NCBI RefSeq assembly: GCF_053078305.1
Contig: NZ_CP166879.1
DNA length: 64,000 nucleotides
Direction: 5' to 3' (one strand)
A program made the position numbers and the translations under genes. The notes beneath the pieces were generated by a model. That model had not been told where the DNA came from, searched no databases, and saw only the letters and a list, made by a program, of their open reading frames with translations. Of this stretch, positions 12,180 through 64,000 are shown one piece after another (positions within the stretch are counted from its first letter, which is position 1; the number at the start of each line of letters is the position of its first letter).

Positions 12180-12232
12180 GGTTAGCTGTTGACTTTTTCC
12201 ATCAGTGATTTCAGTCTGTCCGGGCACATAAC

Positions 12233-39689: not shown

Positions 39690-39701
39690 GGGTGAAGACA
39701 G

Positions 39702-43348: not shown

Positions 43349-46300
43349 TTCCCCTCCTCCTTCTTCGCGCTAGAAGAGAACTGATTATTACTACTTGCTT
43401 CTTTTATATATCCACCAAGAAATTCACTACCAAAAGATCCTGTCGCATCAAATATAAATCCCGGAAACTCTTTCCCAGTAACTGAGTTTACTATTCCGGG
43501 AGCATATACTCCAAATGCTCCACCCAATCCGGCCCCGGCAGCAGCCCCTCCAATAGAGCCTGTATTTGGACCATCGGTAAAGAATGCACCACCCATCGCA
43601 ATTCCGACGTTTTGTCCGACAGTTCTCCCCGGCGCAAGCATACCCGCAATGCCTGAACTGGCACTGCTTTTCCAGTCCCAGTTTTTGTTTTCATTACCTG
43701 GCTGGCTTAAATCAAACCACTGGTAACTTCCATTGGCTATCTCCGCGACGACTCCACCACTGACCATTTTACCGACCGAAGCAGCAGGCCCCAGATACCA
43801 TGCCCCGGCAATCATTACACCATCCTGATATCCATCCACGATCACTTTCGTGATATTGGTGCTGTCCGGCATATCACCTTTCGCTATCTTATCCAGTCCA
43901 GCCTGTGTTTGTTCCGGTGTCAGATTATTGTCCACCGCGTACTTGTTCCATGATGTAGCCGCAGCAGCATTGCTTTCAAAACCATCACCGAAGCTGAGCG
44001 CATTATTCTCAACCGTCGTCTTACCTGACTGTGCTCCGGCTACCGCTGAAGCTCCCGAATCTCCCACCAGACCACCGGCCAGGCCGGCAGCAACCGTTGC
44101 CAGTGTCGAGACCGTCTGCTTCTCTGTCCCGCTCAGTTCACTCACCGGCTTACCGTACATCTGTGTGGCTATCATTCCCACCACCTCGCCGGTGGCTGCG
44201 CCTGCGGCACCAGCCAGAGCATTCTTACCCTGTGCCAGAGACAGGGCTGCATTCACTACTGCATGAGCTGCCACACGTCCCGCACCGTCCGGGGTGGTCT
44301 GTTTGATAATTTCAGCAATATACGGTGCTGCACCACCTGCCAGGGCTGCACTCAGATTACCGCCGGCCAGCCCCTGTACTGCTGCCGTTGCGGCCTGTAT
44401 CGCCTGCTGGTATTTGCCTCCCGTTCCAAAACCTGAGGCCGCCATACCGTTATTGTAGGCCCGCTGCGCCACATCCTGTTCCGTGAACGGTTTTCCTGCT
44501 GCCTCAAGCTCCTCACGGGCCTGATTCAGTGCTGCCGGGTCCCGCTTCGCTTTCTCACCAGCTATCTGGCCTTCCGTTCTGGCAATATCTGCCACCTGGT
44601 TACCAATCTCACCAATGAGCTGCGCCTGCTGCAGTCGCTGCTGCTCTTTTTCCCTGTCAAAGATGGGGGACAGCGTCTGGTTTGCATGTGCTGCGTCACG
44701 GTTCAGGTCTGCCACATCCTGTTTCTGGCTCTGCGTATCCCGGATGGTGATATTCCCGGCAGACACAGCCGACTGAGTGGTGCTTTCTGCATGGCCTTCA
44801 TGATTTGCACCAACCAGCAGATTGTTGGCCATATTTCCCGCGAACTGGCCACCGATGCTGCCGCCAGTGCTGATACCCACGCTCTGGTGTTCAACTTTGT
44901 AATCAGCACGATTTTCGATATCACGGAAGCCCAGTGTACCGGTATCCAGCCGGTTTTTATCTGCCGTTGCCGTGGACGCAATCACCGCACCGTTCAGTTG
45001 CGTATGCTGTCCGGTGGTGACATCAAACCCGCCCCTGCCGGCAAAAATCCCCGTCTGCTCCTGCACACTGTCATAGTTACTGTGCATTTTATCCCGGCTG
45101 AGGCTCACACTCGCCGAACCGCTCATGGACCCGAAAGTGAAGCTGCCTCCGGCACTGGCATTCTGCTGCTTACTGTCATAACGGTCACTGTCCTGCTCAC
45201 TGGTCAGTGTCAGATGACGACCGGCATCCACTTTCACCGTTTCACCGCCGGCCTGCACGCCGGTAAGCGTGGTGTCCCGCCCGCTGATAATGGTCAGGCG
45301 GTTTCCCGCATCCACCGTGGTTTCTGTATGGGTGGTACCGTTGCCTTTTTCACTGCCCTTACCCTGGTTTGCGCTGGCTGAAACACTGATACCCCAGCCT
45401 CCGGCCCCCACACCGATACCGACACCCACACTGCCGCCACTGGATGAGTTCTTTCCTTCCAGCTTTGACGTGTTTTCTGCTGATACCAGATTCACGTCAC
45501 GGTTTGCCTGCAGCAGAACGTTGTTCCCTGCCTTTATCTGACTGCCCTGTATCGTCAGGTCACCATCCACGTCCTTCACGCCGGAGCCGGTGGCCTGAAT
45601 ACTGAGGTTATTACCTGCGGTCAGGGCGCTGTTCTTCGCCACCGTCTGCTCTGACTGCTGTTCTGATTTCGAAGACTGGCTGCCGTAAGAGAGGCTGATA
45701 CCCACGGCATTGTTATTCTCTTTCTGGTTGCCCTGTGCTTCTGCCAGTCGTCCGGCCTGCACGGCCTGAGCCCCCGAGAGCGCGGCCTTCACCCCCTGCA
45801 GGGCTTCAAGCCGGCTGTTTCCGGCAGATTTCGCCGCCTGCACGGTCTCCACCGTCGTGTTCAGGGCGCTGCCCACTGTGCCGGACAGGGCAAGCGTCAG
45901 ACCGGAGGTTTTCTGCTCCACCGAATGCGTCTGCACATGCCGGTCTGTGACGGCGCTAATGCTGACCTCCTTACCACTGAGTGCCATGTCCCTGCCGGCA
46001 ATCAGGTCAGCACTGTTGGCGCTCAGCCGGTTACCTGCCTGAAGGGAAACATCACCGTGAACACTCCCCACCGTGCTGCCTTTCTGTGTGCTGTCTGTTG
46101 CGGTGTCCGTGACTTTCAGACTCTGGCTGCCCACACTGAATCCCACACCTCCGGAGCTCATCAGCCCGGATTTTTTCTCCTGTTTCAGGTGTGTTTCACG
46201 GTTGCTTTCTGTCAGCGTGCCGATACTCAGGTCATTTCCGGCAGCCAGGGAGACACGGTTATCCCCGGCCACACTGCTGCCCGTGACGTTCAGATTATGT

Positions 46301-49300
46301 CCGGCACTGATACTGACCGTATCCCCGTTCAGTTCACTGCCCGTCATGGTCCGGCGGTCAGTGACATCATGCGTGGTTGTGGTGGTTTTCGATAACATCC
46401 CGCTGCTGCCGGTCACTTTATGGTATTCATCCAGCGAGCGGGTATTCTGTGCACCGGTCAGCGTCACGTCATGACCTGCCATCAGGGCCAGGCCTTTCTG
46501 AGCTGACAGCGATGCCGCCTGTGACGTCATATCCCGTCCGGCGGTCAGCGTGACATCACCGTTACCGGCAAGCGTGCTGCCCGTACTCTGTGTGACGCCC
46601 TGCGACAGACGATTATTTTTATCCCAGATAATATTGTCCTGCGCGGAAGTGGTCACTGTGGAAAGCGTCATATCCCTGCCCGCACTGAGTTGCGTCAGGC
46701 TGTCCTTACCCTGATTCACCACCGTTGCAGCCGTCAGATTCATATCCCGTCCGGCCTGCAGCACCAGTCTTCCCTGGTCGTTCTGCACATACACGCCGGC
46801 CACACTGTCGATACTGGTACGTTCAAAATGGTTCTGTCCGGCGTCGCGCTGTGCCGTACGGGTGGTGGTGGTCAGACTGATATCCCGTCCGGCCATCGCC
46901 AGCAGGCTGTCCGTGGCCTGCAGCAGCCCGCCGGTACTGTTAATATCCGTCCGGGCCGTCAGGCTGACATTTGCTCCCTGAATGGAGCCGGCCTGGTTGT
47001 GAATGTTTTCTGCACTGAGCTGCACGGTCTGCTTCCCGGCCAGTTTACCGCTGTTAAACAGGTCACCATCCAGCTTCATCACCATGTCCCTGCCGGCAAT
47101 CAGCGCACCGGCACTGTTCACATCACCGGGTTTTACACGGGCATACACCTGAGGTACCTGAACTGTCTGCGTGCTGCCGTCCGGCAGTGTCACCGTGGTG
47201 TTAACCAGCCAGACAATATCCCCGGTCAGTAACGCCATCTGCTCAGCCGTCAGCGCCACACCCGGTTTCAGGTTGTATTGCTTACCAAATGCAATACCCG
47301 CATCCATTAATGCCTTAAACTGCTCTTCATCACTGCCGTATCTGTCCAGGTACCGTTGCCCGGTCAGAGCGACAACCTGCTCTCGAATCAGACGCTGCTC
47401 GTAAAAACCGTCTCCCAGACGTTTGAGCATGTTATCCCCGTTCTGAGAAAACGCCTTCTGCATGTAATCACTGCCCAGCCACATCTTCTGGTTCGTAAAA
47501 CGCGGGTCCGTTTCAACCAGATATGGCACATTCACTGCCGGATTTGTTTTAAACAGACTGCTGTCCGGCAGACGGGTATCCGGCCCGGCAACATGGATAC
47601 TGCCCTGAGGTGTGCTGACTTCAAACTGCTGCCCCGGCAACAGAATGACCGGTTCACCGGCAGACACCACCGGGCGAAGCGGTATCCGGTCAGTAGCGGC
47701 TACTGCCGCATCCACATTTCCGGCCTGTCCTGTCTGTACATCCGTTCCCTGTGGCTTCAGAGGAGAAAGCGTGACCTGGCTGCCCTGAATCTGTCCGTGG
47801 CTGGTGAGCTCTCCCGGCTTCAGCGTAATGCTCTGAATTACAGTGGGCGGAGTGTACTGAGAGGTTTTCTCCCCCTGCTTATCCTTTCCTTTTTTCCTGA
47901 TACGGTAATAATACGTGGATGTTCCTGAGTCCGTAACATGCCGCTCGCCACTGACACTGACATTTTCCACGCTTCCTGACGGAATGGTCAGCAGGCCGCC
48001 TGCAACAACCTGACTCTTATCATTAAGCAGTTTGTCTGCCACAATCGTCATGCCGGCACCGGACAGAATTTTTCCCGGGTCGGAGTCTTTTACCCGGGTT
48101 TCTTCCACGGTACGGGTGTAATCATACTGCGTGAATTTATCTCTGGCGCCTTCCGGTGTATGCAGTTTTTTCAGTGAGTTACTGGAATCGTTATCCACAT
48201 AAACGCCCGGTTCACCGGCGCTCCAGCGTTTATCTGAGCCGCTGAGCTGATACTCAGTCACCTTTTCCGTGGAAACCACCACGCGCTCCGTGGTGAAATG
48301 GTCATTGACGTTATTGATTTGTCCGGCACTCAGTACCAGATATCCGGCGGCTTCAATAGTGGCACTGTGATTATTCAGTACACCGGCTTTCCCCGTGGCG
48401 GCACCATTCGCATCCAGCATGCCACCAGTATGCATATCACCTGCACTGTAAATCAGGCTGTGCGTCCGGTTATTCAGGGTCTGTACCCCTAAGTCCACAC
48501 GCTCACGCCCGGCCAGCGTCGCCGCCACGCCATTTTCTTCCAGATTATTAAATGTGGCAGCGCTGACACCAACAGCATCGCCGTAGATTCGCCCGGTACC
48601 GGAATTCGTCAGGGTGTTCGCCTGAAGATGCGTATATTTCCCGTCAATCAGCCCACGGTTCAGCAGTGTGTCCGTCACGTTAAGCCAGGTCTGCCCGGCA
48701 CTGATTTCACCTTTCTCTGTGTTTTCAAGGCGGATGCTGTTCAGGTCAAGCCGGCTGCCTGCCAGCAGGCTGCCGGTATTAGAGACATCGCCATTAACGG
48801 AAAGCGTAAGGTTTCCGTTCGCAATAGTCTGACCACTGTTGCTGAACGTTGTGTTACTTTTCAGCGTCATATCGCCCAGCGAAAGCAGTTTCCCGTCACC
48901 ACCGAGCTGACCGGCATCCACAGATACTGACTGCCCGGCCTTAACCACGCCGTCACGGTTCGAAAACGCCAGCTGACGGCCACTGACAGACAATGTCGCG
49001 CCGGAAGAGAGGACGCCGTCATTATTACTGAGCGTCCTGTCTGCCATAACCGTAAGCGCCCTGTCTGCCAGAATACTGCCCTCCTGGTTATCAAGGTCCT
49101 GCGTCGTGATGTGTATTGTCTGCGCTTCCAGCCCCTGACCGGTATTCTGCGTGTGGCGATTGATAAACTGCAGGGCGTTCAGCGTAATGGCGGAACCACT
49201 GCGAATCAGACCAGAGACGTTGTCCACAACGCCCCGTACACTGTTGAGCAACATGTCGCCCACAGACTGTATTTGTCCGTGGCTGTTCTGCAGACCTCCC

Positions 49301-52290: not shown

Positions 52291-52305
52291 TCTGATAAAC
52301 CTGAC

Positions 52306-52833
52306 TTATCTCTCCGGCACATCCACAGCAAGCGGGTGCTGCACACGCCACTGGCGCGCCTCTTCACGACTGACCTGTGCACCCCGGAAATTCATCACCC
52401 GTAACCCGGTCTGCTGCCCACGGTGGTACAGCGAACGCCAGCACAGACGGGGAAAAATATCCTGCCGGACAAGACGACTCATATCCGGAGTGTGTCCAAA
52501 AGGGGCAACCCAGTCACAGACCCACATCCGGTCGCCGCTGTTCCAGTCCGACTGAGGCATGAGAATTGCCGGCTGCGTAAGATAACGCGCCTCTGCCTCC
52601 GGGCTGAGCCAGGCCTGGCTCATGAAGAAAACCGGTCGCCCCTGCTCTGTTGCCACCACATACTGTCGGTGCTTAATCACCGGCAGCTGCAGGTCCGGCA
52701 GGGTATGCAGTGGCGCATCACGATGCAGGGGGGAGTGCATCCACAACCAGACGGCCGCCCCCAGGACTTCCGCCTCATTGACCGGCTCACCGGAATACAG
52801 GGGACTCAGAACGTCATATTTCCCGTTACGCAT
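52306..52833 (-). CDS. cdiC: CdiC, HlyC/TAAT-family toxin-activating lysine acyltransferase
   Basis: LGAAVWLWMHSPLHR, WNSGDRMWVCDWVAPFG parallel the HlyC motifs LGHVSWLWASSPLHR, WTSGDRKWFIDWIAPFG. Located between cdiB and cdiA. Confidence 0.85.
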   Translation of the reverse strand: MRNGKYDVLSPLYSGEPVNEAEVLGAAVWLWMHSPLHRDAPLHTLPDLQLPVIKHRQYVVATEQGRPVFFMSQAWLSPEAEARYLTQPAILMPQSDWNSGDRMWVCDWVAPFGHTPDMSRLVRQDIFPRLCWRSLYHRGQQTGLRVMNFRGAQVSREEARQWRVQHPLAVDVPER

Positions 52834-52842
52834 GAAACTTTC

Positions 52843-54582
52843 TCAGAAATCCCGGAACAGATTAAAACCGGCTGTCACATCACTCGTCATAAAACCCGCC
52901 GGCTTTGAAAACGGACGACCGATGAAAACGTCATAATCCGTACTGAACAGTTGCCCCCTCAGCCCCACAACACCACCGGCCAGATGACGTCCCACCAGAT
53001 ATTCACTGCCGGCTCCCCCCACCTCGCCGTAATCCATTCCCAGATATAACGCCTGCTCCGGCAGTGGCGTACGCCAGGCCAGGTCGTTGCGGATATACCA
53101 GCCGTTACTGGCATTCAGCGTTCGCTCCCCGTCAAAACCACGAACCGTCCAGCGGTTACCGATGGCAAACTGTTCCTGTGGGGTCAGCGGGGTATTGCTC
53201 AGCTGGCGCTGATACCGGAAGGAATAACTGAAGGGCTGCTCTGCCAGTGTAAAGGGCAGATTAAAGGATGCATTCATCTGCAGGATCTTACTGAGCGCCG
53301 TTGCCTCACCGAAGATTTCCTCCGGTGCCGGCTGTGCACCAAACCAGCGGGTTCCCCGTTGCCAGCTGACACCAGCATCCAGTGTGGCCTGAGAAATATA
53401 ATGACGGTGCTGCAGCCCAAGTCGCCAGGCCGCTGTCTGCCGGCGCTGCACCTGGATTTCCGTATCATTAATGTAGTTACGCGACCTGCGGGCCTGAACA
53501 TCGTAAGTCAGCACCGTTTTCTGCGTCCCGTTACGATGCAGTACCCGGCTCAGCTGCATGCCCAGATTCTGACTCTCGCCACTGTACTGGTAATCCTCAA
53601 CCGCACCAGCTACCGTCTGATGGTAATCGTAATCACTGGCGGTGACGGAAAACTGCCAGTAACCGAAAGGCACAGAGTAATGGGCCGTGTAGTTTTTACT
53701 GCCCTTACCCCCGTAATGTGGAAAATTATGGGTGGCAGAAACATACAGCAGGTCACTCAGGGAAAAAGGATTATCCAGAGAAAATGTTATACCACCGAGA
53801 TAACGCCCTGTGCTGCGGGTACCTGAATCATCAAGCGAAAACCCCAGTCGCCAGTATTTATCCTGTTTACGGGTAATAAGAATATCACTTTCCCCTGGCT
53901 GCTCACCGGGCACAATTTCCATATCAGCCTGCACACCCGGCAGTCGTTGCATATTCTCCAGCCCCTGCTCAATGTCCCGTAAATCCAGCAGAGAACCTTC
54001 GTGTGCCGGGAATGAGGAATACAACTGAATATAGTCATCACTGTCCGGTGTCAGACGCACATGTCGCACAACACCGGGAATAACAACCAGCCGGAGGATA
54101 CCGCTTTTTAAATCCTGCGAAGGTGCCAGAACACGGGTGGTGACATAACCATGATCGACAAGACGGTTCTGCAATGTACTCATCAGCAGATTAATTCCTT
54201 TCGCCCCCAGGCAATGCCCGACCGCCCCGTTGGCGATTTTTTGTAAAGGCAGCCAGTGTGGTAACGCATCAGCCCCCTTCAGTTCCGTCTGTTTAATCTG
54301 AAAACAGGGCGTTTCAACAGGAAAATTAATCTTATGGGCAAAAGAGCCAGGTGCAGAAAGGCGAACATCAGGGGCTGAAGGCGTCAGTTGTTGCTCAAGG
54401 GCTTCCTGACGCTGCTGCTGAATGATAAATGTATCCTCTCCACTACGCCGGATATCCGCGGCCTGAAGAGATAAAGGCGATAATAAAACAGACATCAGTG
54501 TCAGTGATAAAATGAACGGACAGCGCCGGAATAAGCTTTGTTCCTCAGCCCTCTCGTTCCTGCAACATAATTTTCCAGCCAA
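52843..54582 (-). CDS. cdiB: CdiB TpsB-family (ShlB/FhaC-type) outer-membrane transporter
   Basis: Signal peptide ...[15 protein letters not shown]-type N-terminus, beta-barrel ending in ...GFNLFRDF. Alternative start at M30 (54495). Confidence 0.9.
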
Positions 54583-55203
54583 ACGAAAAACCTTTTATGC
54601 ATGCTGTGTCAACAATCACCAGCCTCCTGACGATGTCTGCCGCCATTTTGGCAATAACACACTACCGCCCTTCCGGAATTCCCCGTATCAACCGGTACCA
54701 GAATGCTGAGTAACCAGTCAGCCAAATCAGGCTGGTTTAATTTTGCTCATTATAGAATAATGATCTGAAAAATATCAATATAACAGGTGTATCGATCGTA
54801 ATTGCAGATGCTTGCAGATCTTTATTCCAGTATATGTTGTCAAGCTGGAATATTTAGAAATATATATCCATGACTAATGTGGAAATACAGAAAATTATTC
54901 CAGTGAATGCTTTTTATACGGTCTCCTGGCACAGAAAATGGTGATTTTTGATTTGAATCATTGAAATCAGTTCTGCTAATAAGAAGACATGCTGAAAAGC
55001 CGATTTTCAGGGGGTGATTGAAGGGATTGTGAGTTTTTCCTTCGGCTTTTAACGTAACTTCCTGTTTTCCTGATATTCCACGGCAAGATTAATTTTTAGC
55101 GGAGCAGAATGAATAAAATCTTCATCTGGTGTTTTTGCTGCGCGTAAATGCAGGTGTAACTGTGGATGTTATCCACTGAAGAGCTGCTGATGAGGATGAA
55201 GAC

Positions 55204-55776
55204 ATGCTGACTAAAAAAATGTTACTCGTTTGTGCTTCGTGTGTTGCGCTGAGTGCCTGTTCTGCACAGGAAATTGCAGAGCTGAACAGGCAGATAAGTG
55301 ACGGTGCATTTGCTGTGACAAAAGTACTGAACGTAGGTGTAAACCAGGCAGATGATGATCTCAAATATCTGTCTCAGGCACCCCGGGCAAAAAGAGAGAA
55401 ACGTGATCATGTCATAGAAGTCCCTGTTGATGTGGATACAGCTGCGGGAAGACTGAAACGGTACTATAAGTTTTATTCAAATGAAGAAGTCGATGCGATT
55501 CGTAATAACGGACATGCGAACGGGAAGTGGGCCGCAGCAGCAATAAGTCAGAACGGACATATGTGGGATGCCATGCCCGGTAGTTATTATAAAATGGGCA
55601 GTGACTGGGATGGTGGCGAATTTGATGATCATCTGACGCTTGAACTTGAAAAAAATGGCAAAGGAAGTCGGATATATATAACGTATGCATCTCCGGCACC
55701 GGGGCATCTGAAAGATAAATTTATTGAGCCATTAGTTAAACGTGTGAAGGATGTGGCTGAAGGCCGGGTCAGGTAA
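55204..55776 (+). CDS. lipoprotein, unknown function
   Basis: Lipobox ALSAC. Confidence 0.55.
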   Translation: MLTKKMLLVCASCVALSACSAQEIAELNRQISDGAFAVTKVLNVGVNQADDDLKYLSQAPRAKREKRDHVIEVPVDVDTAAGRLKRYYKFYSNEEVDAIRNNGHANGKWAAAAISQNGHMWDAMPGSYYKMGSDWDGGEFDDHLTLELEKNGKGSRIYITYASPAPGHLKDKFIEPLVKRVKDVAEGRVR

Positions 55777-56165
55777 CGTGTACTATATAATATATCCCCT
55801 GGCATACTGCCAGGGGATGTTGTTTTTCTGTATGTCATTTTATGATGATACCTTTGATATTCTTATAGATGTTTAGGTGAACTGTTAATGATAAATATTG
55901 TCCGATATTATACTTTCTTGTAAGTATATTTTGGGGAGGTTATTTTTATTAAGGTTTTAAATGTTTTATTTTGTTCGCTTTTTCTTTCTCTGTTTGTTGT
56001 TTCTTGCTATTACAACTATCTTGTGATTGTTTATATGCTAAACATAATTCTGATGTTTTAGTACATGTAACATATTGACACATTCTTTATCTGTTTGTAT
56101 TTTACGTGTTAGCAGTGTTTTTATTTTGACATTGCTGTTAACAACCGATTGCTGGAGAGGTGAAA

Positions 56166-56444
56166 ATGAATAAAATGTTCAGTCAGTGGATTGATTTTGA
56201 TGAGATGATTACTCCGAAGATCATCAAGGTAATATACTGGTTTTTTCTTTTTATTACAGTGGCCGGTGGTGTTATAGGTATGATAGCCAATCCGTTTGTC
56301 GGACTGCTTGGTCTTATTATGGGTATTATTGGTCTGAGGATTGGGTGTGAAATGATAATTCTTCTTTTTAATATTTATAAGCAGGTTAAAAAGATTGCTG
56401 ATGCGGTACCGGATAAAATAAACGAACAGGCTGAGGATAGTTAA
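56166..56444 (+). CDS. DUF4282-like small membrane protein
   Basis: RBS GGAGAGG. FDEMITPKIIKVIYWFFLFITVAGGVIGMI... matches the DUF4282 pattern (from memory). Confidence 0.55.
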   Translation: MNKMFSQWIDFDEMITPKIIKVIYWFFLFITVAGGVIGMIANPFVGLLGLIMGIIGLRIGCEMIILLFNIYKQVKKIADAVPDKINEQAEDS

Positions 56445-56474
56445 TTATCTCAGAATAAACATTGATGAATGGTA

Positions 56475-56511
56475 ATAACAGGGACTGTTAATACTGTCCC
56501 TGTTATTTTTT
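56475..56511 (+). terminator. intrinsic terminator
   Basis: ATAACAGGGAC-(10 nt)-GTCCCTGTTAT followed by TTTTT. Confidence 0.8.
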
Positions 56512-56559
56512 CTGCAGACTGTTTTCTGTTCTTCCTGGTTATGTTCTGAGTGATGATGA

Positions 56560-56588
56560 TTGACGCCTTTTATACGCTCTGATATGCT
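56560..56588 (+). promoter_or_regulatory. sigma70-like promoter in front of STAXI copy 2
   Basis: TTGACG-17 nt-TATGCT. The -35 lies 44 nt upstream of the first STAXI hairpin, the same spacing as TTGACT in copy 1 and within 1 nt of TTGACA in copy 3. Confidence 0.45.
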
Positions 56589-56603
56589 CAGAATGCATTA
56601 TCT

Positions 56604-56822
56604 GTCGCTTCGGCGACCACCAATGCTCCATAAGTGGTCTGAGAGGAGCGCCTTCGGGTGGCCACATCCCGCTTCGGTGGGCACCAATGTTCCGTTGATC
56701 TGAGAGGAACGCCTTCGGGTGATCAACACCCCCGTAACCTGAAAGGGGATGTGCAGCCAGGATGTTTCTGGTGGTGGTAAATCTGCCCACCTTTGAGAGC
56801 AGATATCGTCAGTCATGATGAT
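56604..56822 (+). ncRNA. STAXI-type repeated-pseudoknot element, copy 2 (two modules plus tail)
   Basis: Near-identical to modules 2-3 and the tail of copy 1. The differences are G-U-compatible in the + sense (GTGGTC/GGCCAC; ATCGTCA/TGATGAT). Confidence 0.7.
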
Positions 56823-57467
56823 GAAGGTTTCTTTTAACCGCGCCCTTTATTACGGGCAATACACAGCAGTGGTTGTGTGATCCTTATCTATCCGGTGATG
56901 CCGGAATGTTTTTACTGCGTAATGGCGGTATTGACTTCTTTTATTCTTTTCATTTGTTTGCCAGCACTTCCTGCGACTGTGCGCGCTGTATAAGACCATT
57001 TGAAATTTGGTCGCTTACGCGTGTACCTGGCGTCTGAAGCTGCGCGGCGTCACTTTCGTCAGCGTGTCACGATGACAAAGTGACGCACGCGCGTCTGCTT
57101 AACGAACCCGCACGAACTGCCGTTTCACGTGATGTTTTTTAACATTTGAAGAAGTGACCCGGCGTGAGAGTGTTTTTTCAACCTCTTCTGCAAATTTACG
57201 GACGATTTTGTGAATAACGTCCATAAATGGTTTTTTGCAGAATTAATTGTTTTTTAAGGAGTTTTATGTAGTGAGATGCCGAATCGGCGATACCACTTAT
57301 TAGAGGTGGTGTCGGGGGCGACCTGGAGACAGGTACAGCAAATGCTGCAGTCGGTGTGCAACACCGATTTGTTACCCCTCAATACCTAAACAATCTGCGC
57401 TACCCTGGCGCACAGGCAGTCACTACCCGAAGGATCGCAACGTTTAACCGTGTCGTCAGGGAGAAAT

Positions 57468-57518
57468 GCAGATGAGTTTTTCTGTTGTGTTCACGGCACA
57501 ACAGAAAAACTCATCTGC
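57468..57518. repeat. perfect 22-bp inverted repeat with a 7-nt spacer (lox/FRT-like architecture)
   Basis: GCAGATGAGTTTTTCTGTTGTG-TTCACGG-CACAACAGAAAAACTCATCTGC, 49 nt upstream of the recombinase ATG. Confidence 0.9.
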
Positions 57519-57567
57519 CGAACGTACAGCTGTTTAAGGTAAAAATTATTATGTGCAGGAGAAGTTG

Positions 57568-58470
57568 ATGTCCAGACGTGAAAAATTACTGAAACAGGAT
57601 CTGGTTGCTCACATTCGAAAAGACAAAGGCAGCTTCAAGAAGCTGAGTGATTACACCAGGATCATGCACCGCTTTGCTGAAAGTCTGGCAAAAATGAATG
57701 TACAGATCAGTTCTGCCGCGCAGGTAAAAGTCCGGCATATTGAGCTATATATGAGAAGCCGGAGTAATGTTTCTGGGCGAACAAGGGAAAATGAAATGTC
57801 TGCAATACGGGTTATGTTACGTCAGGCAGGTAAATATAAGATGGCTGATCCCGAACATCCTCGTCTCAGCAATAAAGCGTTAGGCATTTCCGGCTCCAGT
57901 CGTAAGGGAACAAAAAAATTAATCACGGATGAGCGTTTTCGGGAGATTCTTCAGCGTGTGGAAGCAAAAGATAAAGGGGTGGCTGCTGTTGTTAAACTGT
58001 CACGTTACCTCGGTCTGAGAAATGAAGAAGCTATCCAGTCGGCCAAATCATTACGAACCTGGAAAAAAGCGTTACAACGGGGAGATGAAAAAATAAGAGT
58101 GATTTTTGGTACGAAAGGGGGACGGGAAAGAATGACAACGGTTGTTGACCGGGATAACGTTCTTGATGCTGTTAATTATGCACTCAAATATGCCAGTGAA
58201 CATAATGGACGTCTTATAGACAGAGATAATCTTAAGTCGGCAATGGATTATTATCTTAATACATTACGTCGTTATGGAGAACTGAAAGGCGGAGATGAGA
58301 CTGCACACAGTTTTCGGTACAGTTACGCTGCAAGTGCCATGAAATATCATATTATGAACGGTTACAGTTATAAGGAGGCACTTGCACTGACATCAATTGA
58401 TCTTGGTCATGGTGATGGCAGAGGACGATATATTGAACAGGTTTATTGTCAGTTGTTAGGCTATGAGTAA
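57568..58470 (+). CDS. tyrosine recombinase / integrase-family protein
   Basis: RBS AGGAG. Catalytic-type residues in LGLRNEE (R), GTKGGRER (K), AHSFRYSYA (HxxR), LGHGDG (H), RYIEQVY (Y). Confidence 0.75.
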   Translation: MSRREKLLKQDLVAHIRKDKGSFKKLSDYTRIMHRFAESLAKMNVQISSAAQVKVRHIELYMRSRSNVSGRTRENEMSAIRVMLRQAGKYKMADPEHPRLSNKALGISGSSRKGTKKLITDERFREILQRVEAKDKGVAAVVKLSRYLGLRNEEAIQSAKSLRTWKKALQRGDEKIRVIFGTKGGRERMTTVVDRDNVLDAVNYALKYASEHNGRLIDRDNLKSAMDYYLNTLRRYGELKGGDETAHSFRYSYAASAMKYHIMNGYSYKEALALTSIDLGHGDGRGRYIEQVYCQLLGYE

Positions 58471-58502
58471 TAACTCATGGCGATTTCGTACGGGTAAATA
58501 TT

Positions 58503-58826
58503 ATGGATTGTACTATTTTGCTGAAAATAATCTCTGTAAAAGAGATTACAAAAAATTCGCCTTTGTGGTCACACTATCTGGCGCGATATGTTGATTCCGG
58601 ATATCAGGCCGAGTTTGAATGTGAAGGAACAGCAGATAAATGGGATATCTATGATGAATGGGACATCTATGAATCCATTGCGGATTATTTTGATGTGGTA
58701 GGAGATTTTAACTGTGATGTCAGATGGTCGGGAAGAAAAATACTGATTAAAGGGACCTGTGTTTTTCCTCTGGGAGAACCCGTTAAGGGAATACATAATA
58801 TTCCTCTTTGGATTGATGTTGAATAA
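58503..58826 (+). CDS. hypothetical protein (107 aa)
   Basis: Track ORF, AT-rich. Confidence 0.4.
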   Translation: MDCTILLKIISVKEITKNSPLWSHYLARYVDSGYQAEFECEGTADKWDIYDEWDIYESIADYFDVVGDFNCDVRWSGRKILIKGTCVFPLGEPVKGIHNIPLWIDVE

Positions 58827-58827
58827 C

Positions 58828-58856
58828 TTGACATTCATCTTTTGTGATTTAAAAAT
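58828..58856 (+). promoter_or_regulatory. sigma70-like promoter in front of STAXI copy 3
   Basis: TTGACA-17 nt-AAAAAT; -35 is 43 nt upstream of the first hairpin. Confidence 0.4.
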
Positions 58857-58870
58857 ATACAGGCTTATAT

Positions 58871-59089
58871 GTCGCTTCGGCGACCACCAATGCTCCATAA
58901 GTGGTCTGAGAGGAGCGCCTTCGGGTGACCACATCCCGCTTCGGTGGGCACCAATGTTCCGTTGATCTGAGAGGAACGCCTTCGGGTGATCAACACCCCC
59001 GTAACCTGAAAGGGGATGTGCAGCCAGGATGTTTCTGGTGGTGGTAAATCTGCCCACCTTTGAGAGCAGATATCGTCAGTCATGACGAT
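58871..59089 (+). ncRNA. STAXI-type repeated-pseudoknot element, copy 3 (two modules plus tail)
   Basis: Near-identical to copy 2 and to modules 2-3 of copy 1. Confidence 0.7.
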
Positions 59090-59227
59090 GAAGGTTTCTT
59101 TATAACTGCGCCCTTTATTAACGGGCTTTTTCTGACAGCAACACCATGCTGTACTGGTGGTGTTTTAACCCTGACGGGAGTTTTTGTCCGTCGGGGCGAA
59201 GGCTCCCGTTTTTTTACAGGAGTCTTT

Positions 59228-59620
59228 ATGTCAACGTTTATTTTGTGCCCTGAACCGGGCATCTCTTCTTTTTTCCGGCGAATGACGGCTCAGTTGCGGG
59301 TGTTTTTTTCCCGCAATAACCTGTCATATTACAGTCGCTGGTACACTAATCCGGCCGGCAATCTGAGCGTGCGGGTCTGTATGTTCCGTCGTGGCGGTGT
59401 CTGGACACCCTGCCTGTATTACCGGCAGGGAATGTATCGCAACGAGTACACAGGATGGTATCAGCCGTTACCGCGTGAGGTCATTTATCTGAACCGGTTT
59501 ACCGGACGGATATCCCGTCGCAGGACATGGCATGCTGCCTGCCGTATGGCGGAGCAACTGACCACCCTGCGTTACCGGTTTGGTCTGCAGGGTGATGGAA
59601 TCGTCGCACAGCCCTGCTGA
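59228..59620 (+). CDS. hypothetical protein (130 aa)
   Basis: ATG after CAGGAG. The track ORF 59060.. runs in from the STAXI element and is trimmed here. Confidence 0.45.
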   Translation: MSTFILCPEPGISSFFRRMTAQLRVFFSRNNLSYYSRWYTNPAGNLSVRVCMFRRGGVWTPCLYYRQGMYRNEYTGWYQPLPREVIYLNRFTGRISRRRTWHAACRMAEQLTTLRYRFGLQGDGIVAQPC

Positions 59621-59640
59621 TTTATCATTTATTACCCTGT

Positions 59641-59685
59641 CGGGAACACGCTTCCCGCAGGGCAGGTGTGTTCCCGTTATTTTTT
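59641..59685 (+). terminator. intrinsic terminator
   Basis: CGGGAACAC...GTGTTCCCG followed by TTATTTTTT. An alternative hairpin CCCTG...CAGGG overlaps it. Confidence 0.6.
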
Positions 59686-59702
59686 GTATCTGAGGTGAAC
59701 AC

Positions 59703-60182
59703 ATGCATAGTCTGTTAATACTCCTTTACGTTGTTGTATGGCGTGCCTGCACCATTCTTCGGGTAATCGCACCAGTGTCGGCTGTCCGTGCGTGGTGTGA
59801 GTATCAACTGGAAGGTATGACGATACTTCGTGATGCGTACAGCTCGCTGGCTAAGGCGGCTGGAATGCAGAATGATGCATTTGAATATACTGAAAGTATT
59901 GCACGTCATCTGGGCTACAAAAGCGGTGGTGACCAACTGAAATCAGGACTTTTCCGGCCGTTTCTGTGGCATATACGTGTGAAAGGCCACAGGCTGGGGG
60001 CTGTCATGGAGATGGAGGCATGGAAGACATGGAAGAATGGCTGTAACGATGTCTGCAATCCATGGGAGGATGTCTGTAATCCATGGGAGCGTGGATGGAA
60101 CGATGGCTGGACGGAATGTCTGAATCAACGTATAGCCGGGCTCCTGAAGCAGGCCTGTATTGAATTTTCCGACGCAGACTGA
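59703..60182 (+). CDS. hypothetical protein with a duplicated DVCNPWE motif; start uncertain
   Basis: Track ORF only. Confidence 0.4.
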   Translation: MHSLLILLYVVVWRACTILRVIAPVSAVRAWCEYQLEGMTILRDAYSSLAKAAGMQNDAFEYTESIARHLGYKSGGDQLKSGLFRPFLWHIRVKGHRLGAVMEMEAWKTWKNGCNDVCNPWEDVCNPWERGWNDGWTECLNQRIAGLLKQACIEFSDAD

Positions 60183-60377
60183 CGGGCAGGATGCCAGTCA
60201 GTCACAGGAAGGATGTCAAATCGTGAGCGATGCAACTGCCATTTTGCAATGATGGCTGTTTTGCTCCCGTAACGGTTTTTCTTTTACTTACTGCACCGTG
60301 TTTTTGCGCCGGTGTTTTCCCTGACGGGAGTTTTGTTCCGTCAGGGACAGGACTTCCTTTAAGAGACGGAGGTCATC

Positions 60378-60755
60378 ATGTATTCACCTTTAATTGCTCA
60401 TTATTCAGCGCTTCAGACGCAGTCTGCTCTGCTGGCTCATATCAGTCAGATGGAAGGCGAGCTGATGCGGTTACGTGCCTGGCAACGGCTGGGTATTACC
60501 CCGGAGCCGGATGATGAGACGGAGCCTTCACTGGTATACGTGTATCTGTGGGATACCGGCGAGGCGCTGGGCTGGCTGTTGTATGACCTGGAGCAGGAGG
60601 AGATTTCCGCACCGGGAATTCAGGCCCGTCAGGCACTCGACAGTCTGATGGCTCTGGGGCGTGAAATTAATCATGAAATCTGGGCTGACAGTATCAGTAC
60701 CGGAAAGATGGTGGCCGGAGCGGATGAATATTTTGCCCGGCACGACATGATGTAA
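60378..60755 (+). CDS. hypothetical acidic protein (125 aa)
   Basis: RBS GACGGAGG. Confidence 0.5.
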   Translation: MYSPLIAHYSALQTQSALLAHISQMEGELMRLRAWQRLGITPEPDDETEPSLVYVYLWDTGEALGWLLYDLEQEEISAPGIQARQALDSLMALGREINHEIWADSISTGKMVAGADEYFARHDMM

Positions 60756-60836
60756 TTCATGACCTGACTCTGACGGGGGAGTTCTCCGTCCGGGAGACAT
60801 TCCCCGTTGTTTAGTTTTAACCATGAGGAATGTTCC

Positions 60837-61466
60837 ATGTCTGAGTTATCTTCACGTCCGGTCCGTGAGCCGGTGGTATATACCCTTGAGCAGGTTTCCA
60901 CAATACCGGAAAAGCAGTGGCATGCTTTTGTTCTGGCTGTCACTGAAACCTTCTGGCAGTTGCCGGAGGCGTTACGGCCGCAGAATGCGTATTTCGGCTC
61001 CCTGACCCGGGCGTCAGAGTTGTTTCCGGTAACGGACACGCTGGCGTTTTACTGCCGGTCTGCCGACGGGCTGTGGTCGGTGAATGTCACTATTGAGCGG
61101 GAGCACAGCCGGAATATCCTGGCTCTTAATGAGCTGAATTTCGGACGTCAGCCGGGAGATTTCTTTGCCCGTACAGTCTTTGTGCTGTTGCACAATCTGT
61201 GTCCGGACTGTTTTCGTATTCATTCCACTGTCGGTGGTGCCAGCTGGTCGCTGCCGCTGAAATGGATAAAACGGTACCTGGGGCATGAGAATTTTTCTGC
61301 TCCGGAGTCTGTATTAACCACCCCGGTAAGGGGAGATGCGTTTGACAGCTTACTGCTGCAGTTTTTGTCCGGTCAGGGGCGACAGTTATCCCCGGATGAC
61401 TGGGCAGCACTGGAAGAGGCCGAATATCAGCTTTACTGGCTGCGGGCTCTTGCCGGTGGGCGGTAA
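60837..61466 (+). CDS. hypothetical protein (209 aa)
   Basis: ATG after GAGGAA; the track ORF is trimmed. Confidence 0.5.
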   Translation: MSELSSRPVREPVVYTLEQVSTIPEKQWHAFVLAVTETFWQLPEALRPQNAYFGSLTRASELFPVTDTLAFYCRSADGLWSVNVTIEREHSRNILALNELNFGRQPGDFFARTVFVLLHNLCPDCFRIHSTVGGASWSLPLKWIKRYLGHENFSAPESVLTTPVRGDAFDSLLLQFLSGQGRQLSPDDWAALEEAEYQLYWLRALAGGR

Positions 61467-61581
61467 CAGAACGCCGTAGTTTCTTTATCCGGAATAACGT
61501 CATCACGTATTCCGTCATTATATCACCCGGCAGGGACATATCCCTGTGGGGAGAGTCCCGGCTTTATTCAGGAGAATTGTT

Positions 61582-61965
61582 ATGGGACTCGATATTTACT
61601 TTCTGGCTCGTGATAACCATCACAGTGGTGCCGTTGTGGGAACACAGGAACATCAGGAGGTGGGGGCTTTCCGTAAGGTGAAACCGCTTCTGACATGGTT
61701 TCGTGAACATACCGGTGCTTCAGATGAGCAGCATGCTTTCCCTGTAACCCGCAGTTCACTGGCTGCATTATTGCGCGACCTCAGTATGCTGACACCGGGG
61801 AACTGCCACAGGCTGTTTCCTTATGTCACAGGCTCGTGTTTACGGGGGGAAGATTATGCCGGTGATTACTGGTATGACGTGGATGACGTAAAAGCGTGGG
61901 TCAGCAATACGCTGAAGACGTTTGATTTTGAGCGTCGTTCACTGGTGATGCTGGCGTTGTGGTAA
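61582..61965 (+). CDS. hypothetical protein (127 aa)
   Basis: ATG after CAGGAGAA. Confidence 0.5.
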   Translation: MGLDIYFLARDNHHSGAVVGTQEHQEVGAFRKVKPLLTWFREHTGASDEQHAFPVTRSSLAALLRDLSMLTPGNCHRLFPYVTGSCLRGEDYAGDYWYDVDDVKAWVSNTLKTFDFERRSLVMLALW

Positions 61966-62057
61966 TTCTGGCCAGTCTGATTTTCGTTATTAATTTAACT
62001 GTACGGTGCACTCTCACCGTACAGGGAGCGTGCATCTTTTTCAGGGGGCATGCTCTT

Positions 62058-63035
62058 ATGAAAACGAAAAAACATACTTCACGTACCGCGATTAAAACTC
62101 CGGAACGTGACCTGTATCAGCTTGTGACCGACAGGGTTGTTACGGCCATTGAAAATGGTGTGCCACCCTGGAAACGTCCCTGGCGCTCTGCGCGTAATGG
62201 CGTGGGGCTTCCGGAGATGATGCCGGCAAATGCCCTGACCGGGAAGCCTTATACAGGGGTGAACGTCCTGTTGCTGTGGCTGGCCGCGGATGAAGCCGGG
62301 TATGTCAGCAATGACTGGCTGACGTACCGTCAGGCGCAACAACTGGGTGGCCACGTCCGTAAAGGGGAGGTGGCCACGCTGGCGGTGATTTACAAAGACT
62401 GGAAAAAACAGGCTGTGGATGAACACGGTAACCGGCTGACGGACAGTGAGGGGGAGCCTCTCATGGAAATCGTACCGGTACTGAAATCGAATCCTCTGTT
62501 TAATGTGGGGCAGTGTGACGGTTTACCTGAACATCTGATGGTGAAGGCGGAAGGCAGCGCGGATGCACTGCCGGCAGATACCTTCAGTGAGCGGGTGCTG
62601 CAGGTACTGAATGGCAGCGGCGTCAGCGTCTCGTCACTTCCACAGGACAGGGCATTCTACCGGCCTGATCTTGACCGTATCGTGATGCCACTGTCGTCGC
62701 AGTTTGACCAGGTGGCTGATTACTGGACCACCCTGCTGCATGAGCTGGTACACAGTACCGGTCATGAAAAGCGCCTGCGGCGGGTGGGGATAAGTACCTT
62801 TACCGGTCGCAAAAGCCCGGAATATGCGTTTGAAGAGCTGATTGCCGAGATGGGCAGTGCTTTTCTGTGTGCACATCTCGGGATTGCCGGTGACGTACAG
62901 CACGAAAGTTATATTGACGGATGGCTTAAGGTTCTGAAGTCTGACAAAAAAGCGCTGTTTCGCGCCTGCCGGCAGGCACGTGAAGCATCAGAGTATTTAC
63001 TGACGCGGCGAACTTCGCAGGAGTGCGCAGCATAA
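62058..63035 (+). CDS. ardC: ArdC-like antirestriction protein (ssDNA-binding N-domain plus zincin metalloprotease)
   Basis: DLYQLVTDRVVTAIENGVPPWKRPW and NDWLTYRQAQQLGGHVRKGE (ArdC-N); HELVHSTGH HExxH motif. Confidence 0.8.
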   Translation: MKTKKHTSRTAIKTPERDLYQLVTDRVVTAIENGVPPWKRPWRSARNGVGLPEMMPANALTGKPYTGVNVLLLWLAADEAGYVSNDWLTYRQAQQLGGHVRKGEVATLAVIYKDWKKQAVDEHGNRLTDSEGEPLMEIVPVLKSNPLFNVGQCDGLPEHLMVKAEGSADALPADTFSERVLQVLNGSGVSVSSLPQDRAFYRPDLDRIVMPLSSQFDQVADYWTTLLHELVHSTGHEKRLRRVGISTFTGRKSPEYAFEELIAEMGSAFLCAHLGIAGDVQHESYIDGWLKVLKSDKKALFRACRQAREASEYLLTRRTSQECAA

Positions 63036-63081
63036 TTTTTACTACCGGTGGCGGTTATAACCTGACCGCCATTTATCCCGT

Positions 63082-63118
63082 GAGGGCATTGTACCTCACG
63101 GGACAATGCCCTCTTTTT
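63082..63118 (+). terminator. intrinsic terminator after ardC, with a competing upstream hairpin
   Basis: GAGGGCATTGT...ACAATGCCCTC followed by TTTTT. The mutually exclusive hairpin is CCCGTGAGG/CCTCACGGG (63077-63102). Confidence 0.7.
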
Positions 63119-63148
63119 ACATCTGTATAAAAAAGAGGAGCGTAAACA

Positions 63149-64000
63149 ATGTCTGAATGGTGCAAAAACCGTTTTGAAATTACCGGTAAATCAGTCTGTC
63201 TTGATGTACTTACACAGTGGATTGAAGGGCGTGAGACCCCGCGCTACCGTCATGCCATACAGCAGAGTATACAGCTGTTTCTGGCCGGTTGTGCAGGGCT
63301 GGTAAAACCCACACGGACGACGCAGTATCCGCCATATCCGGCGCTGGTTCGTCAAGGAACGGGGTTGTCATCTCCGGCTAACCAGGCGTTTGAGCAGTGG
63401 CTGGGGTTGCTGGTAAAAAATGCCGTTCTGGATGGTGAAACGATAAAGACCATTGAGCGTCTTTATCACCAGTCATGTATCGGCGCTGTTCGCTGGGGTA
63501 ATCTGCCGGATAATGCCAGGGAGATCATCACCACGCTGATGAGCCGTCAGTATTCTGACTGGTTTGGTCTGGCCGGGCTGAGTGAACACATTGATGCAGA
63601 AGCCTGCTGGAGCTGGTTGTCGGATTACCCGGAACAGGCGCAGCCCTGTGACATGCTGATGGTCATACCCTCCCGTCTGGCTACAGAGCTGAATGGTTCA
63701 GGTGGACTGCTGCAGGGTATTTCCACAACGACCAGCCTTTACAGCCGGATATACGGTGTGGAGTGGCCGTCAGGAAATAATGTTCGCCATGCGCGTGATG
63801 AGATGAGCAGTCTGGTGCTGCTGATCGACACGCCCTGGTATCCGCCTTCAGGCGAACTGGTTGGTGAGATCTCGAAGGTGTTTGACTGCGAGGTCCGACA
63901 CTGGTACAGCGAGCCGGTACACGGTATACAGGGTTACAACTGTTACGATGGCGGAGAGCATACGGACAGTGATCTGCAGGCCGAATGGCCGGGCAGGGAA
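63149..64000 (+). CDS. hypothetical protein, 3'-truncated by the window end
   Basis: RBS AAGAGGAG, ATG 63149. I translated 284 codons to nt 64000 without a stop. Not in the ORF track, presumably because no stop is reached. Confidence 0.55.
   Translation, partial: MSEWCKNRFEITGKSVCLDVLTQWIEGRETPRYRHAIQQSIQLFLAGCAGLVKPTRTTQYPPYPALVRQGTGLSSPANQAFEQWLGLLVKNAVLDGETIKTIERLYHQSCIGAVRWGNLPDNAREIITTLMSRQYSDWFGLAGLSEHIDAEACWSWLSDYPEQAQPCDMLMVIPSRLATELNGSGGLLQGISTTTSLYSRIYGVEWPSGNNVRHARDEMSSLVLLIDTPWYPPSGELVGEISKVFDCEVRHWYSEPVHGIQGYNCYDGGEHTDSDLQAEWPGRE

Follow-up and report, generated by a model that had tools for sequence, protein, structure and literature searches.

What is the purpose of a large, highly structured nucleic acid motif that recurs three times in a mobile island, each time just ahead of a different set of genes? 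The question is raised by the third STAXI copy in a 64,000-nucleotide (nt) stretch of Escherichia coli DNA (RefSeq assembly GCF_053078305.1, contig NZ_CP166879.1; hereafter the window, meaning the whole stretch analysed), which is an integrative and conjugative element (ICE) of the SPI-7/PAPI-1/ICEclc-ICEHin1056 family. Weinberg et al. described the STAXI RNA motif (RF01728) in 2010, together with its taxonomic range and gene associations; it has been in Rfam since then without a function, and its original authors were undecided between RNA and single-stranded DNA (ssDNA) (PMC2864571). A literature search found no paper that assigns it one. The locus is an ordinary member of this known family, and that finding is not new. 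What is added here is evidence for RNA over ssDNA, an architecture of three positions, a conserved promoter, documented recombinants and plasmid-borne STAXI>EFASI units; neither the fixed promoter register nor the three conserved positions was found in the accessible part of the 2010 description (PMC2864571). Tentatively, and with rather less than even confidence, copy 3 is read here as a non-coding 5' leader RNA, promoter-proximal and cis-acting, at the head of the anti-restriction/establishment operon of the island.

Copy 3 is a STAXI element far above chance, a point on which the Rfam E-values, the covariation and the synteny across genera agree. Rfam cmscan matches it on the plus strand at 58870-59035 with 93.6 bits (E=1.4e-18; gathering score 40.5) over the full model (positions 1-153 of 153), and also finds, on the same strand, copy 2 at 56603-56768 (90.9 bits) and copy 1 at 12360-12525 (76.2 bits). 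A preliminary description of this DNA had placed copy 3 at 58828-59089; the identification stands, but the structure ends at 59095, with the 3' arm of the last pseudoknot. The same description had called copy 3 almost identical to copy 2 and had counted three near-identical copies 44 kb and 2 kb apart, which a repeat finder bears out: the three form a single repeat family, at 12291-12527 (97%), 56598-56834 (the reference) and 58865-59101 (99%), with spacings of 44307 nt and 2267 nt, and are direct repeats, all on one strand.

The array of copy 3 (58871-59095) is composed of two canonical units (A and B), a degenerate and a terminal unit, and thus has the tandem repetition, at least twofold and usually threefold, that marks the family. 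A canonical unit opens with P1, whose loop is UUCG; next come the linker CACCAAUG, a pseudoknot strand of 5 nt, and P2's 5' arm and then CUGAGAG, and the unit closes with the complementary pseudoknot strand, the P3 hairpin and the 3' arm of P2. This pairing pattern is that of an H-type pseudoknot whose third loop contains a hairpin. Both units A and B carry UUCG loops in P1 and in P3, and their pseudoknots differ in a compensatory manner, GCUCC/GGAGC in A becoming GUUCC/GGAAC in B. In copies 2 and 3 the Rfam alignment takes the degenerate unit, weakly paired, as the third repeat; the pattern of the terminal unit, GGUAAAyCyGUUUAACCUUUGArAACrGr...AAGGU, is kept in other genera. Copy 1 has an extra 64-nt unit at 12233-12296. 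Open reading frames (ORFs) that cross the array (58569-59057 and 58865-59083 on the minus strand, and 59060-59620 with a TTG start) were rejected as coding, as they are unannotated in RefSeq relatives; by our own reading, the AUG of CCAAUG opens frames of unequal length in units A and B. A separate feature of all three copies is a 13-nt long-range pairing (85% complementary) of CACAUCCCGCUUC with GAAAGGGGAUGUG, which in copy 3 joins 58930-58942 to 59008-59020 and, in the minimum free energy (MFE) fold of the whole leader, replaces P1 of unit B.

Which nucleic acid and which strand adopt this structure can be read from about 70 unique units. Pairing in register reaches 95% in P2 and in the pseudoknot alike, and it drops to 23-69% (P2) and 39-61% (pseudoknot) when the 3' partner is slid by 1-3 nt. 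The middle positions of the pseudoknot switch freely among C-G, U-A and A-U, with more than 12 compensatory pair combinations. G.U pairs number 112 in the stems against 10 A.C, the G.U pair closing P3 is essentially invariant, and the P3 loop is UUCG in 65 of the 70 units. Within the window, by our own reading, the cores of copies 2 and 3 differ by two substitutions, each of which gives G.U on the plus strand in place of a Watson-Crick pair, and the extra unit of copy 1 carries a double change from U-A to C-G. The C(UUCG)G tetraloop stabilises RNA and not DNA, and the discoverers of STAXI called it an RNA hallmark (PMC2864571). Because G.U pairs far exceed A.C and the loops are UUCG, the structure is assigned to the sense strand of the downstream genes; what the asymmetry excludes is only the antisense strand as the structured one.

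A promoter stands at a fixed distance ahead of this structure. The preliminary description had noted TTGACA-17-AAAAAT upstream of copy 3, beginning 2 nt after the stop codon of the preceding ORF (orf107, Table 1), and both observations hold: the sigma70-type promoter scores 10/12 in a consensus scan. Its register is shared by other genera, as judged from 44 clusters of upstream flanks of their STAXI loci that are unrelated to each other. When these flanks are aligned on the first CCAAU, TTGnnn and TAnnnT boxes share columns in nearly all of them, the flanks being otherwise unrelated. The best sigma70-like -10 ends 29-35 nt ahead of the first CCAAU in 36 of the 44 clusters (binomial 4e-23), and a -10 in this register ends 12-16 nt before P1; an in-register promoter scoring at least 8/12 is present in 30 clusters, compared to 1.7 in shuffles. 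Our conclusion is that STAXI has a promoter of its own from which it is transcribed, and that the motif would begin only a few nt from the 5' end of the RNA. STAXI RNA has indeed been detected in Pectobacterium by strand-specific RNA sequencing (RNA-seq; PMC4710047) and in E. coli vesicles by quantitative reverse-transcription PCR (PMC12370729).

These data bear directly on the possibility that STAXI acts as ssDNA during conjugation or rolling-circle replication, as a single-strand origin, a priming site or an ssDNA promoter, which its discoverers had raised (PMC2864571) and which we now hold to be very improbable. The neighbouring ssb, topB, anti-restriction and methylase genes are typical of leading regions, ICEs can have single-strand origins (PMC5812530), and DNA would tolerate the G.T pairs if the same-sense strand were transferred. 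However, it is the complementary strand, the template, that is usually transferred in plasmid leading regions, and this strand is mismatched, including once in every P3, as the G.U to A.C ratio reflects; the C(UUCG)G loops are RNA-stabilising, the promoter at the fixed upstream register is of the duplex type, the RNA has been detected, and STAXI is also present on theta-replicating ColE1-type plasmids. STAXI does resemble Frpo, ssi and sso, which are non-coding structured elements beside ssb and anti-restriction genes (PMC5812530), but those elements rebuild the -35/-10 duplex from long, imperfect hairpins of DNA, while the STAXI promoter is an ordinary duplex and its array follows RNA pairing rules. 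A long inverted repeat over the -35/-10, which a promoter of the Frpo type needs, was not found at any of the three promoters, where only 10-16-nt repeats at chance level occur, and an Frpo-type promoter was therefore rejected. The fixed promoter register, the excess of G.U over A.C and the lack of an obligatory terminator (see below) favour RNA, and together they indicate that STAXI is probably a transcribed 5' leader RNA rather than ssDNA.

The genes that follow STAXI are conserved too. A collection of species-representative genomes was scanned with the pattern CCAATG..CTGAGAG..CTTCGG, which gave at least 120 blocks, over half of them chance matches in unrelated phyla; the true loci were recovered afterwards by nhmmer, and the locus counts are a sample and not a census. 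Among the matches listed are about 45 real STAXI loci, from Pantoea, Erwinia, Mixta, Cedecea, Citrobacter, Phytobacter, Dryocola, Chimaeribacter, Kluyvera, Klebsiella, Xenorhabdus and others, with Rfam scores of up to 125 bits. At all loci STAXI is co-oriented with the downstream genes, and tblastn with the window proteins places it at three recurrent positions: TopB > STAXI > STY4534 > SSB (about 18 loci among those listed), STAXI > (EFASI) > integrase-like (at least 16 among those listed) and integrase-like > STAXI > small genes > ArdC > DUF1281 (about 10 among those listed). The last matches the placement that had been described for copy 3, between the recombinase block and the small-gene array, and the comparison of homologous ICEs finds the copies present and in order, neither absent nor scattered. 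The flanking proteins at the conserved loci are 40-78% identical to those of the window, and the MOBH/MPF_G plasmid pEB102 has the same layout. The units themselves differ in build: in E. coli each has a P1 and the period is 64 nt, while in most other genera only the first unit has a P1 and the period is about 46 nt. No STAXI was found by blastn in 50,697 phage records.

The element paired with STAXI at the second position is EFASI RNA (RF02957), which lies in the window behind copy 2 and reaches 66-91 bits (Rfam) where it is paired with STAXI in other genera. EFASI is a co-located partner, upstream of an integrase-like gene as its family description says; its structure is another one and it is not part of copy 3. 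Because the same module heads STY4534-ssb, the EFASI/integrase-like unit and the copy 3 operon, these three transcripts can be viewed as one co-controlled set. They are the ones that an incoming island most plausibly needs early, namely STY4534-ssb, the integrase-like unit and the ArdC/methylase anti-restriction operon. If this is true, STAXI offers an experimental handle on the timing of establishment genes in this widespread family of islands and MOBH plasmids of enterobacteria.

A further question is whether the RNA ends behind the array or continues into the genes. A terminator-like site lies within 200 nt downstream in 17 of 46 non-redundant STAXI flanks (37%), as compared to 10% of random windows. 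Since 63% of the flanks have no such site within this distance, STAXI RNA would normally run on into downstream sequence, and a discrete, terminated small RNA (sRNA) was rejected on the same count. A broader version, in which STAXI is a trans-acting sRNA or a CsrB-like protein sponge that is released by processing or partial termination and has the downstream genes as mere neighbours, is in our view unlikely. It takes support from the Rfam class of the family ('Gene; sRNA'), from the enrichment of terminator-like sites, from loops that are invariant while the stems vary within an array, as fits a platform for a multivalent ligand, and from the vesicles of one Shiga toxin-producing E. coli strain, whose most abundant RNAs include STAXI and EFASI (PMC12370729). 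It does not explain why most flanks lack a terminator-like site or why STAXI is always co-oriented and directly upstream of a few conserved partners. The CsrA motif GGA is not kept in the purine loop, where variants include GAGAGAAAC and GAGAGAAUC, and a CsrA sponge was rejected for this reason.

An argument for a role in trans also comes from small plasmids. ColE1-type plasmids of 4.4-8.4 kb (with RNAI and Rop, without a relaxase, and typed as non-mobilizable) from Pantoea, Cronobacter, Kosakonia, Mixta and others carry a STAXI>EFASI unit that stands alone, with no coding sequence on the same strand, behind a promoter of the same geometry (TTGACC and a TG-extended TAGTAT). A candidate partner protein that co-occurs on these plasmids, as a sponge might lead one to expect, was not found. 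As no same-strand gene follows these units, STAXI cannot work only by way of an ORF translated behind it; its behaviour is that of a portable 5' module for any RNA that follows, or else it has a role in trans. The units also suggest an RNA-level link between small plasmids and islands. On the Klebsiella pneumoniae plasmid pINF078-VP (IncFIB/FII; L128 5925-7706), STAXI, EFASI and the integrase-like gene lie among insertion sequences and metabolic cargo, away from an SPI-7-type backbone, and the trio may be a separable module.

Between the array and the first cistron lies a leader rich in hairpins. The preliminary description had seen a GC hairpin about 80 nt beyond copy 3, and its arms are indeed there, with CCCTGACGG at 59169 and CCGTCGGGG at 59188 forming the 59169-59196 hairpin. 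Related hairpins occur at 12567-12598, 59636-59663 and 60318-60347, and the order STAXI, hairpin, ORF recurs, as had been stated, at copy 1 (CCCTGACGGG/CCCGTCAGGG at 12568/12589, ahead of ORF 12645) and also in other genera. A second hairpin, GGGAG...CTCCC followed by T7, had been proposed ahead of ORF 59228; the T7 run exists, but the MFE fold prefers a hairpin that sequesters the Shine-Dalgarno (SD) sequence and holds the T7 in its loop, so that the run is, in the folding model, most likely a loop and not a terminator tail. A terminator scan offers an alternative, a 17-bp G.U-rich hairpin at 59173-59210 followed by the T7, which is disfavoured because the 59169-59196 hairpin is transcribed first and would have to be displaced. 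This arrangement recurs in every intergenic region of the small-gene array and ahead of STY4534: first a GC hairpin (CCCUGnCGGGA type), then a helix over the SD or AUG (z = -2.5 to -6.2). By these folds, translation of the small genes and of STY4534 appears to be locked or coupled. RNAalifold on 13 diverse STY4534 leaders shows covariation in both upstream hairpins, including one pair of the GC hairpin, and UUCUCC and GGAGA are kept in all 13 aligned leaders.

The hairpins and T-runs of this region lead to another candidate role, in which STAXI would be a processive antiterminator RNA of the HK022 put/lambda nut type, the nascent RNA binding polymerase and carrying it past Rho-dependent and intrinsic stops. 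The put and nut sites lie immediately 3' of early promoters, and like them STAXI is a structured RNA placed just 3' of several promoters and in cis to long operons, with one copy right behind each of the three promoters and a geometry kept across genera. The leaders are of great length, some 950 nt separating the copy-2 promoter from the start of the integrase-like gene, and terminator-like motifs, mostly on the plus strand and intergenic, number 23 in 55000-64000 against 7.4 +/- 2.9 in shuffled sequence, the G.U-rich hairpin with T7 at 59173-59215 among the candidates. The T-runs are, however, better explained as loops of SD-sequestering hairpins, and the terminator-like fold must displace its predecessor; moreover, there is no T-run between the copy 1 STAXI and STY4534, and a downstream terminator is not consistent in other genera. 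A put site consists of two stem-loops whereas STAXI consists of repeated pseudoknots, and likeness to put, nut or EAR in sequence or structure is not evident, no dedicated comparison having been made. Such an antiterminator is distinctly unlikely. It could be extended to a promoter-proximal anti-termination/anti-Rho device that would license only the transcripts of the three promoters through hairpin-studded operons, with the STAXI>EFASI units of plasmids as borrowed copies joining the circuit, a speculation to which we likewise give little credence.

The cis-acting leader that we tentatively prefer draws on the family membership, RNA-type covariation with strand asymmetry, promoter register and synteny, and on the lack of an obligatory terminator. 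RNA polymerase would start a few nt past the -10 (58851-58856), and the first ~230 nt would fold co-transcriptionally, the 5' UUCG hairpin first and then four H-type pseudoknots (58871-59095). The module would then remain on the message and act in cis, and its array, with the invariant nucleotides of CCAAUG and CUGAGAG, might be a 5'-terminal shield as well as a multivalent platform for protein binding. The message would run through ORF 59228, the four further small genes, ArdC and DUF1281 to the N6-methylase past the window, and each cistron's SD or AUG may be locked in a hairpin within the leader. Long untranslated leaders are otherwise open to Rho and RNase E, and structured obstacles close to the 5' end reportedly impede the scanning of RNase E (Richards and Belasco, 2019). 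We infer that the shield or platform could set the lifetime and usability of this long, otherwise untranslated leader.

Several points weigh against the cis-acting leader. The predicted start leaves ~5-9 unpaired nt ahead of P1, longer than in classical 5' stabiliser hairpins, and since a single hairpin suffices for 5' protection, 150-300 nt of pseudoknots imply a further role. The promoter of copy 1 is weak (7/12), and on the small plasmids only EFASI follows STAXI, with no same-strand gene downstream. The anti-SD helix has no covariation support in the 13 STY4534 leaders (RNAalifold), as both of its strands are invariant. Finally, the STAXI copies of enterohaemorrhagic E. coli EDL933 gave only 2-6 RNA-seq reads (PMC5331693), because of which the STAXI promoters would not be simply constitutive.

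How does copy 3 compare with known systems? To its own family it conforms without essential difference: the match is full-length and above the gathering score, the pseudoknots are in tandem, the loops are UUCG, the host is enterobacterial, and the family's usual neighbours are also here, with ssb and topoisomerase III at copy 1 and the integrase-like gene upstream and ArdC downstream of copy 3. Among 5' stabilisers, the ompA 5' hairpin likewise places structure at the very 5' terminus of an mRNA, and the leader pseudoknot of T4 gene 32 is coupled to the gene of an ssDNA-binding protein, as copy 1 is to ssb. STAXI differs from both in its much greater size, in being repeated and in standing also at the head of transcripts without ssb, and no autoregulatory protein is known for it. 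ToxI shares the series of promoter, tandem pseudoknot repeats, hairpin with T-run and small ORF, but its repeats are near-identical and cut into monomers, whereas STAXI units differ from one another in a compensated way. A ToxI-like antitoxin was rejected: the units are unequal, the three positions differ in their downstream genes, and there is no ToxN/AbiQ match for ORF 59228.

The preliminary description had further proposed that the copies are substrates for homologous recombination that could delete or invert the cargo, and had suggested a search for deletion variants. Genome comparison confirms the deletions in part. A single chimeric STAXI, which joins the copy-2 promoter flank to the copy-3 downstream flank, is present in each of two E. 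coli genomes, CFIAFB20190157 (L124) and Z1323MEC0001 (L129), and both lack the 2.3-kb EFASI/integrase-like/orf107 segment (the content of 57268-58826); in L124 the crossover lies within STAXI. Inversion is not expected because the copies are direct repeats, and a chimeric query built from the upstream flank of copy 1 and the downstream flank of copy 3, as a 46-kb deletion would join them, matched none of 5,426 E. coli genomes contiguously. In several genomes (e.g. H19/L003) the integrase-like gene seems to be missing, but a divergent version is present, and these were rejected as deletions. The direct repeats would explain structural variants of these islands such as loss of the EFASI/integrase-like cassette.

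It has to be asked, then, whether the copies are anything more than selfish or neutral repeats that serve only as recombination substrates. Natural copy 2/copy 3 recombinants exist, the number of 64-nt units varies among near-identical islands, and copies are homogenised in E. coli and Citrobacter. Copy 3 itself has one extra 64-nt unit in the closest E. coli relatives, with three CCAAU units against two in the window. Copies within one element are 98-99% identical in E. coli and 96% in Citrobacter braakii. In most genera, on the other hand, they are 79-83% identical, near the between-genus level (median 81%), and the near-identity of the window copies is a lineage-specific homogenisation. The structure is retained at this divergence, the stems and the pseudoknot covary in a compensatory manner, and position, orientation and promoter register are kept despite the low identity of the flanking proteins. 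Purely neutral repeats are already contradicted by the covariation and are hardly credible. The STAXI sequence variant seen here is rare among the 5,426 complete E. coli genomes: only 20 of them contain it, at 1-8 places per genome, and it is annotated in none.

Table 1. Coordinates of STAXI, its promoters, leader structures and surrounding genes (window numbering unless a locus is named)
Feature	Position	Strand	Remarks and basis
STAXI unit A, copy 3	58871-58932	+	Rfam alignment, sequence, covariation over ~70 unique units
Unit A P1 hairpin	58871-58884	+	GUCGC-UUCG-GCGAC
Unit A linker	58885-58892	+	CACCAAUG
Unit A pseudoknot	58892-58896 with 58912-58916	+	GCUCC with GGAGC
Unit A P2	58901-58906 with 58927-58932	+	GUGGUC with GACCAC
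Unit A P3	58917-58926	+	GCC-UUCG-GGU
STAXI unit B, copy 3	58935-58993	+	Sequence and Rfam alignment; P1 CCCGC-UUCG-GUGGG; linker CACCAAUG; P2 UUGAUC with GAUCAA; P3 GCC-UUCG-GGU
Unit B pseudoknot	58956-58960 with 58973-58977	+	GUUCC with GGAAC
Degenerate middle unit	58996-59045 (approximate limits)	+	CCCC...GGGG pairing; sequence reading
Degenerate unit hairpin	59024-59038	+	CCAG-GAUGUUU-CUGG
Terminal STAXI unit	59046-59095	+	Sequence
Terminal unit pseudoknot	59048-59052 with 59067-59071	+	AUCUG with CAGAU
Terminal unit P2	59056-59060 with 59091-59095	+	ACCUU with AAGGU
Terminal unit P3	59072-59089	+	AUCGUCA-GUCA-UGACGAU
STAXI copy 1	12189-12527	+	Behind topB terminator; five units; heads STY4534-ssb
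STAXI copy 2 with own promoter	56560-56834	+	
Copy 3 promoter, sigma70-type	58828-58856	+	-35 TTGACA 58828-58833; 17-nt spacer; -10 AAAAAT 58851-58856
Copy 2 promoter	56560-56588	+	TTGACG-17-TATGCT with TG extension
Copy 1 weak promoter-like site	12189-12217	+	TTGACT-17-CAGTCT
Leader hairpin	59140-59164	+	AACACCAU...GGUGGUGUU; MFE fold of 59140-59240, z = -4.9
GC-rich leader hairpin	59169-59196	+	CCCUGACGGG/UCCGUCGGGG, one G.U pair; sequence and MFE fold
Predicted SD-sequestering hairpin	59198-59227	+	GAAGGCUCC 59198-59206 with GGAGUCUUU 59219-59227; MFE fold
T7/U7 run; SD GGAG; ATG	59209-59215; 59219-59222; 59228	+	
Hairpin plus SD/AUG helix regions	59621-59702, 60300-60377, 60756-60836, 61467-61581, 12530-12644		Several with U-rich loop
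EFASI RNA, RF02957	57268-57425		53.2 bits against gathering 51.2; 430 nt after copy 2, ~130 nt before integrase-like gene
ParB, several small genes, STY4528 family, PFL_4669, topoisomerase III	topB 9918-11966	+	RefSeq annotation
STY4534/DUF3577; ssb; type IV secretion genes next	12645-13112; 13422-13982	+	RefSeq annotation
190-aa gene and DUF4282	Ahead of STAXI copy 2	+	RefSeq annotation
Integrase-like gene	57553-58470	+	Pfam domains Phage_int_SAM_2 and Integrase_1
orf107	58503-58826	+	TAA stop 58824-58826
First cistron behind copy 3, 130-aa protein	59228-59620	+	ORF list and RefSeq annotation of ~99%-identical island
Four further small genes	59703-60182, 60378-60755, 60837-61466, 61582-61965	+	Annotation
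ArdC	62058-63035	+	Pfam ArdcN and MPTase-PolyVal (zincin-like)
DUF1281	From 63149	+	Annotation
N6-methylase, UvrD-type helicase, TraI, integrase, tRNA-Phe	Beyond the window		RefSeq annotation
Small-plasmid STAXI>EFASI units	L010 3484-4148; L125 2439-1690; L126		L125 on minus strand
Chimeric STAXI	L124 3000-3480; L129 4950-5240		
Relatives' copy 3 with extra unit	L001 23867-24166; L003 6044-6343		Compared with window 58865-59101

The nearest island to the window lies at tRNA-Phe of E. coli O22:H8 strain 154 and is 99.3% identical over the 9 kb tested; the gene order on the plus strand of the window was taken from its RefSeq annotation, which also contains the ICE family core genes and a tyrosine integrase beside tRNA-Phe. 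The core set comprises ParA/ParB, a DnaB-type helicase, PFL_46xx/TIGR037xx conjugation proteins, TraD, TraG and MOBH TraI, and the STY4534_fam equivalog is matched with 193.6 bits. STY4534 lies upstream of ssb, the same position as InrR of ICEclc, only position being compared. No Pfam or NCBIfam match was found for orf107 and the five small genes after copy 3.

Further features were seen in the rest of the window. By the annotation of relative L001, the cargo includes paralogues of type-B (zinc-independent) ribosomal proteins L31/L36 at ~39700-40100 and, on the minus strand at 43345-54582, a two-partner secretion system with a haemagglutinin-repeat protein of 2981 aa. At 33278-33560, 3.3 copies of an 87-nt unit (92% matches) lie within a plus-strand ORF of the conjugation gene block. 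A tandem array at 8367-9114 holds 20.8 copies of the 36-nt unit TGCCAGTGGCACCAGAGTATAAAAAATAGCCAATGG, with the palindrome TGCCAgTGGCA, between the gene of an STY4528-family 'replication protein' and the PFL_4669 gene; its neighbours are all on the plus strand, and it is covered only by a minus-strand hypothetical ORF. The array looks like iterons or a centromere/ParB-type loading array and not a gene, and the CCAATG that it has in common with the STAXI linker is probably due to chance.

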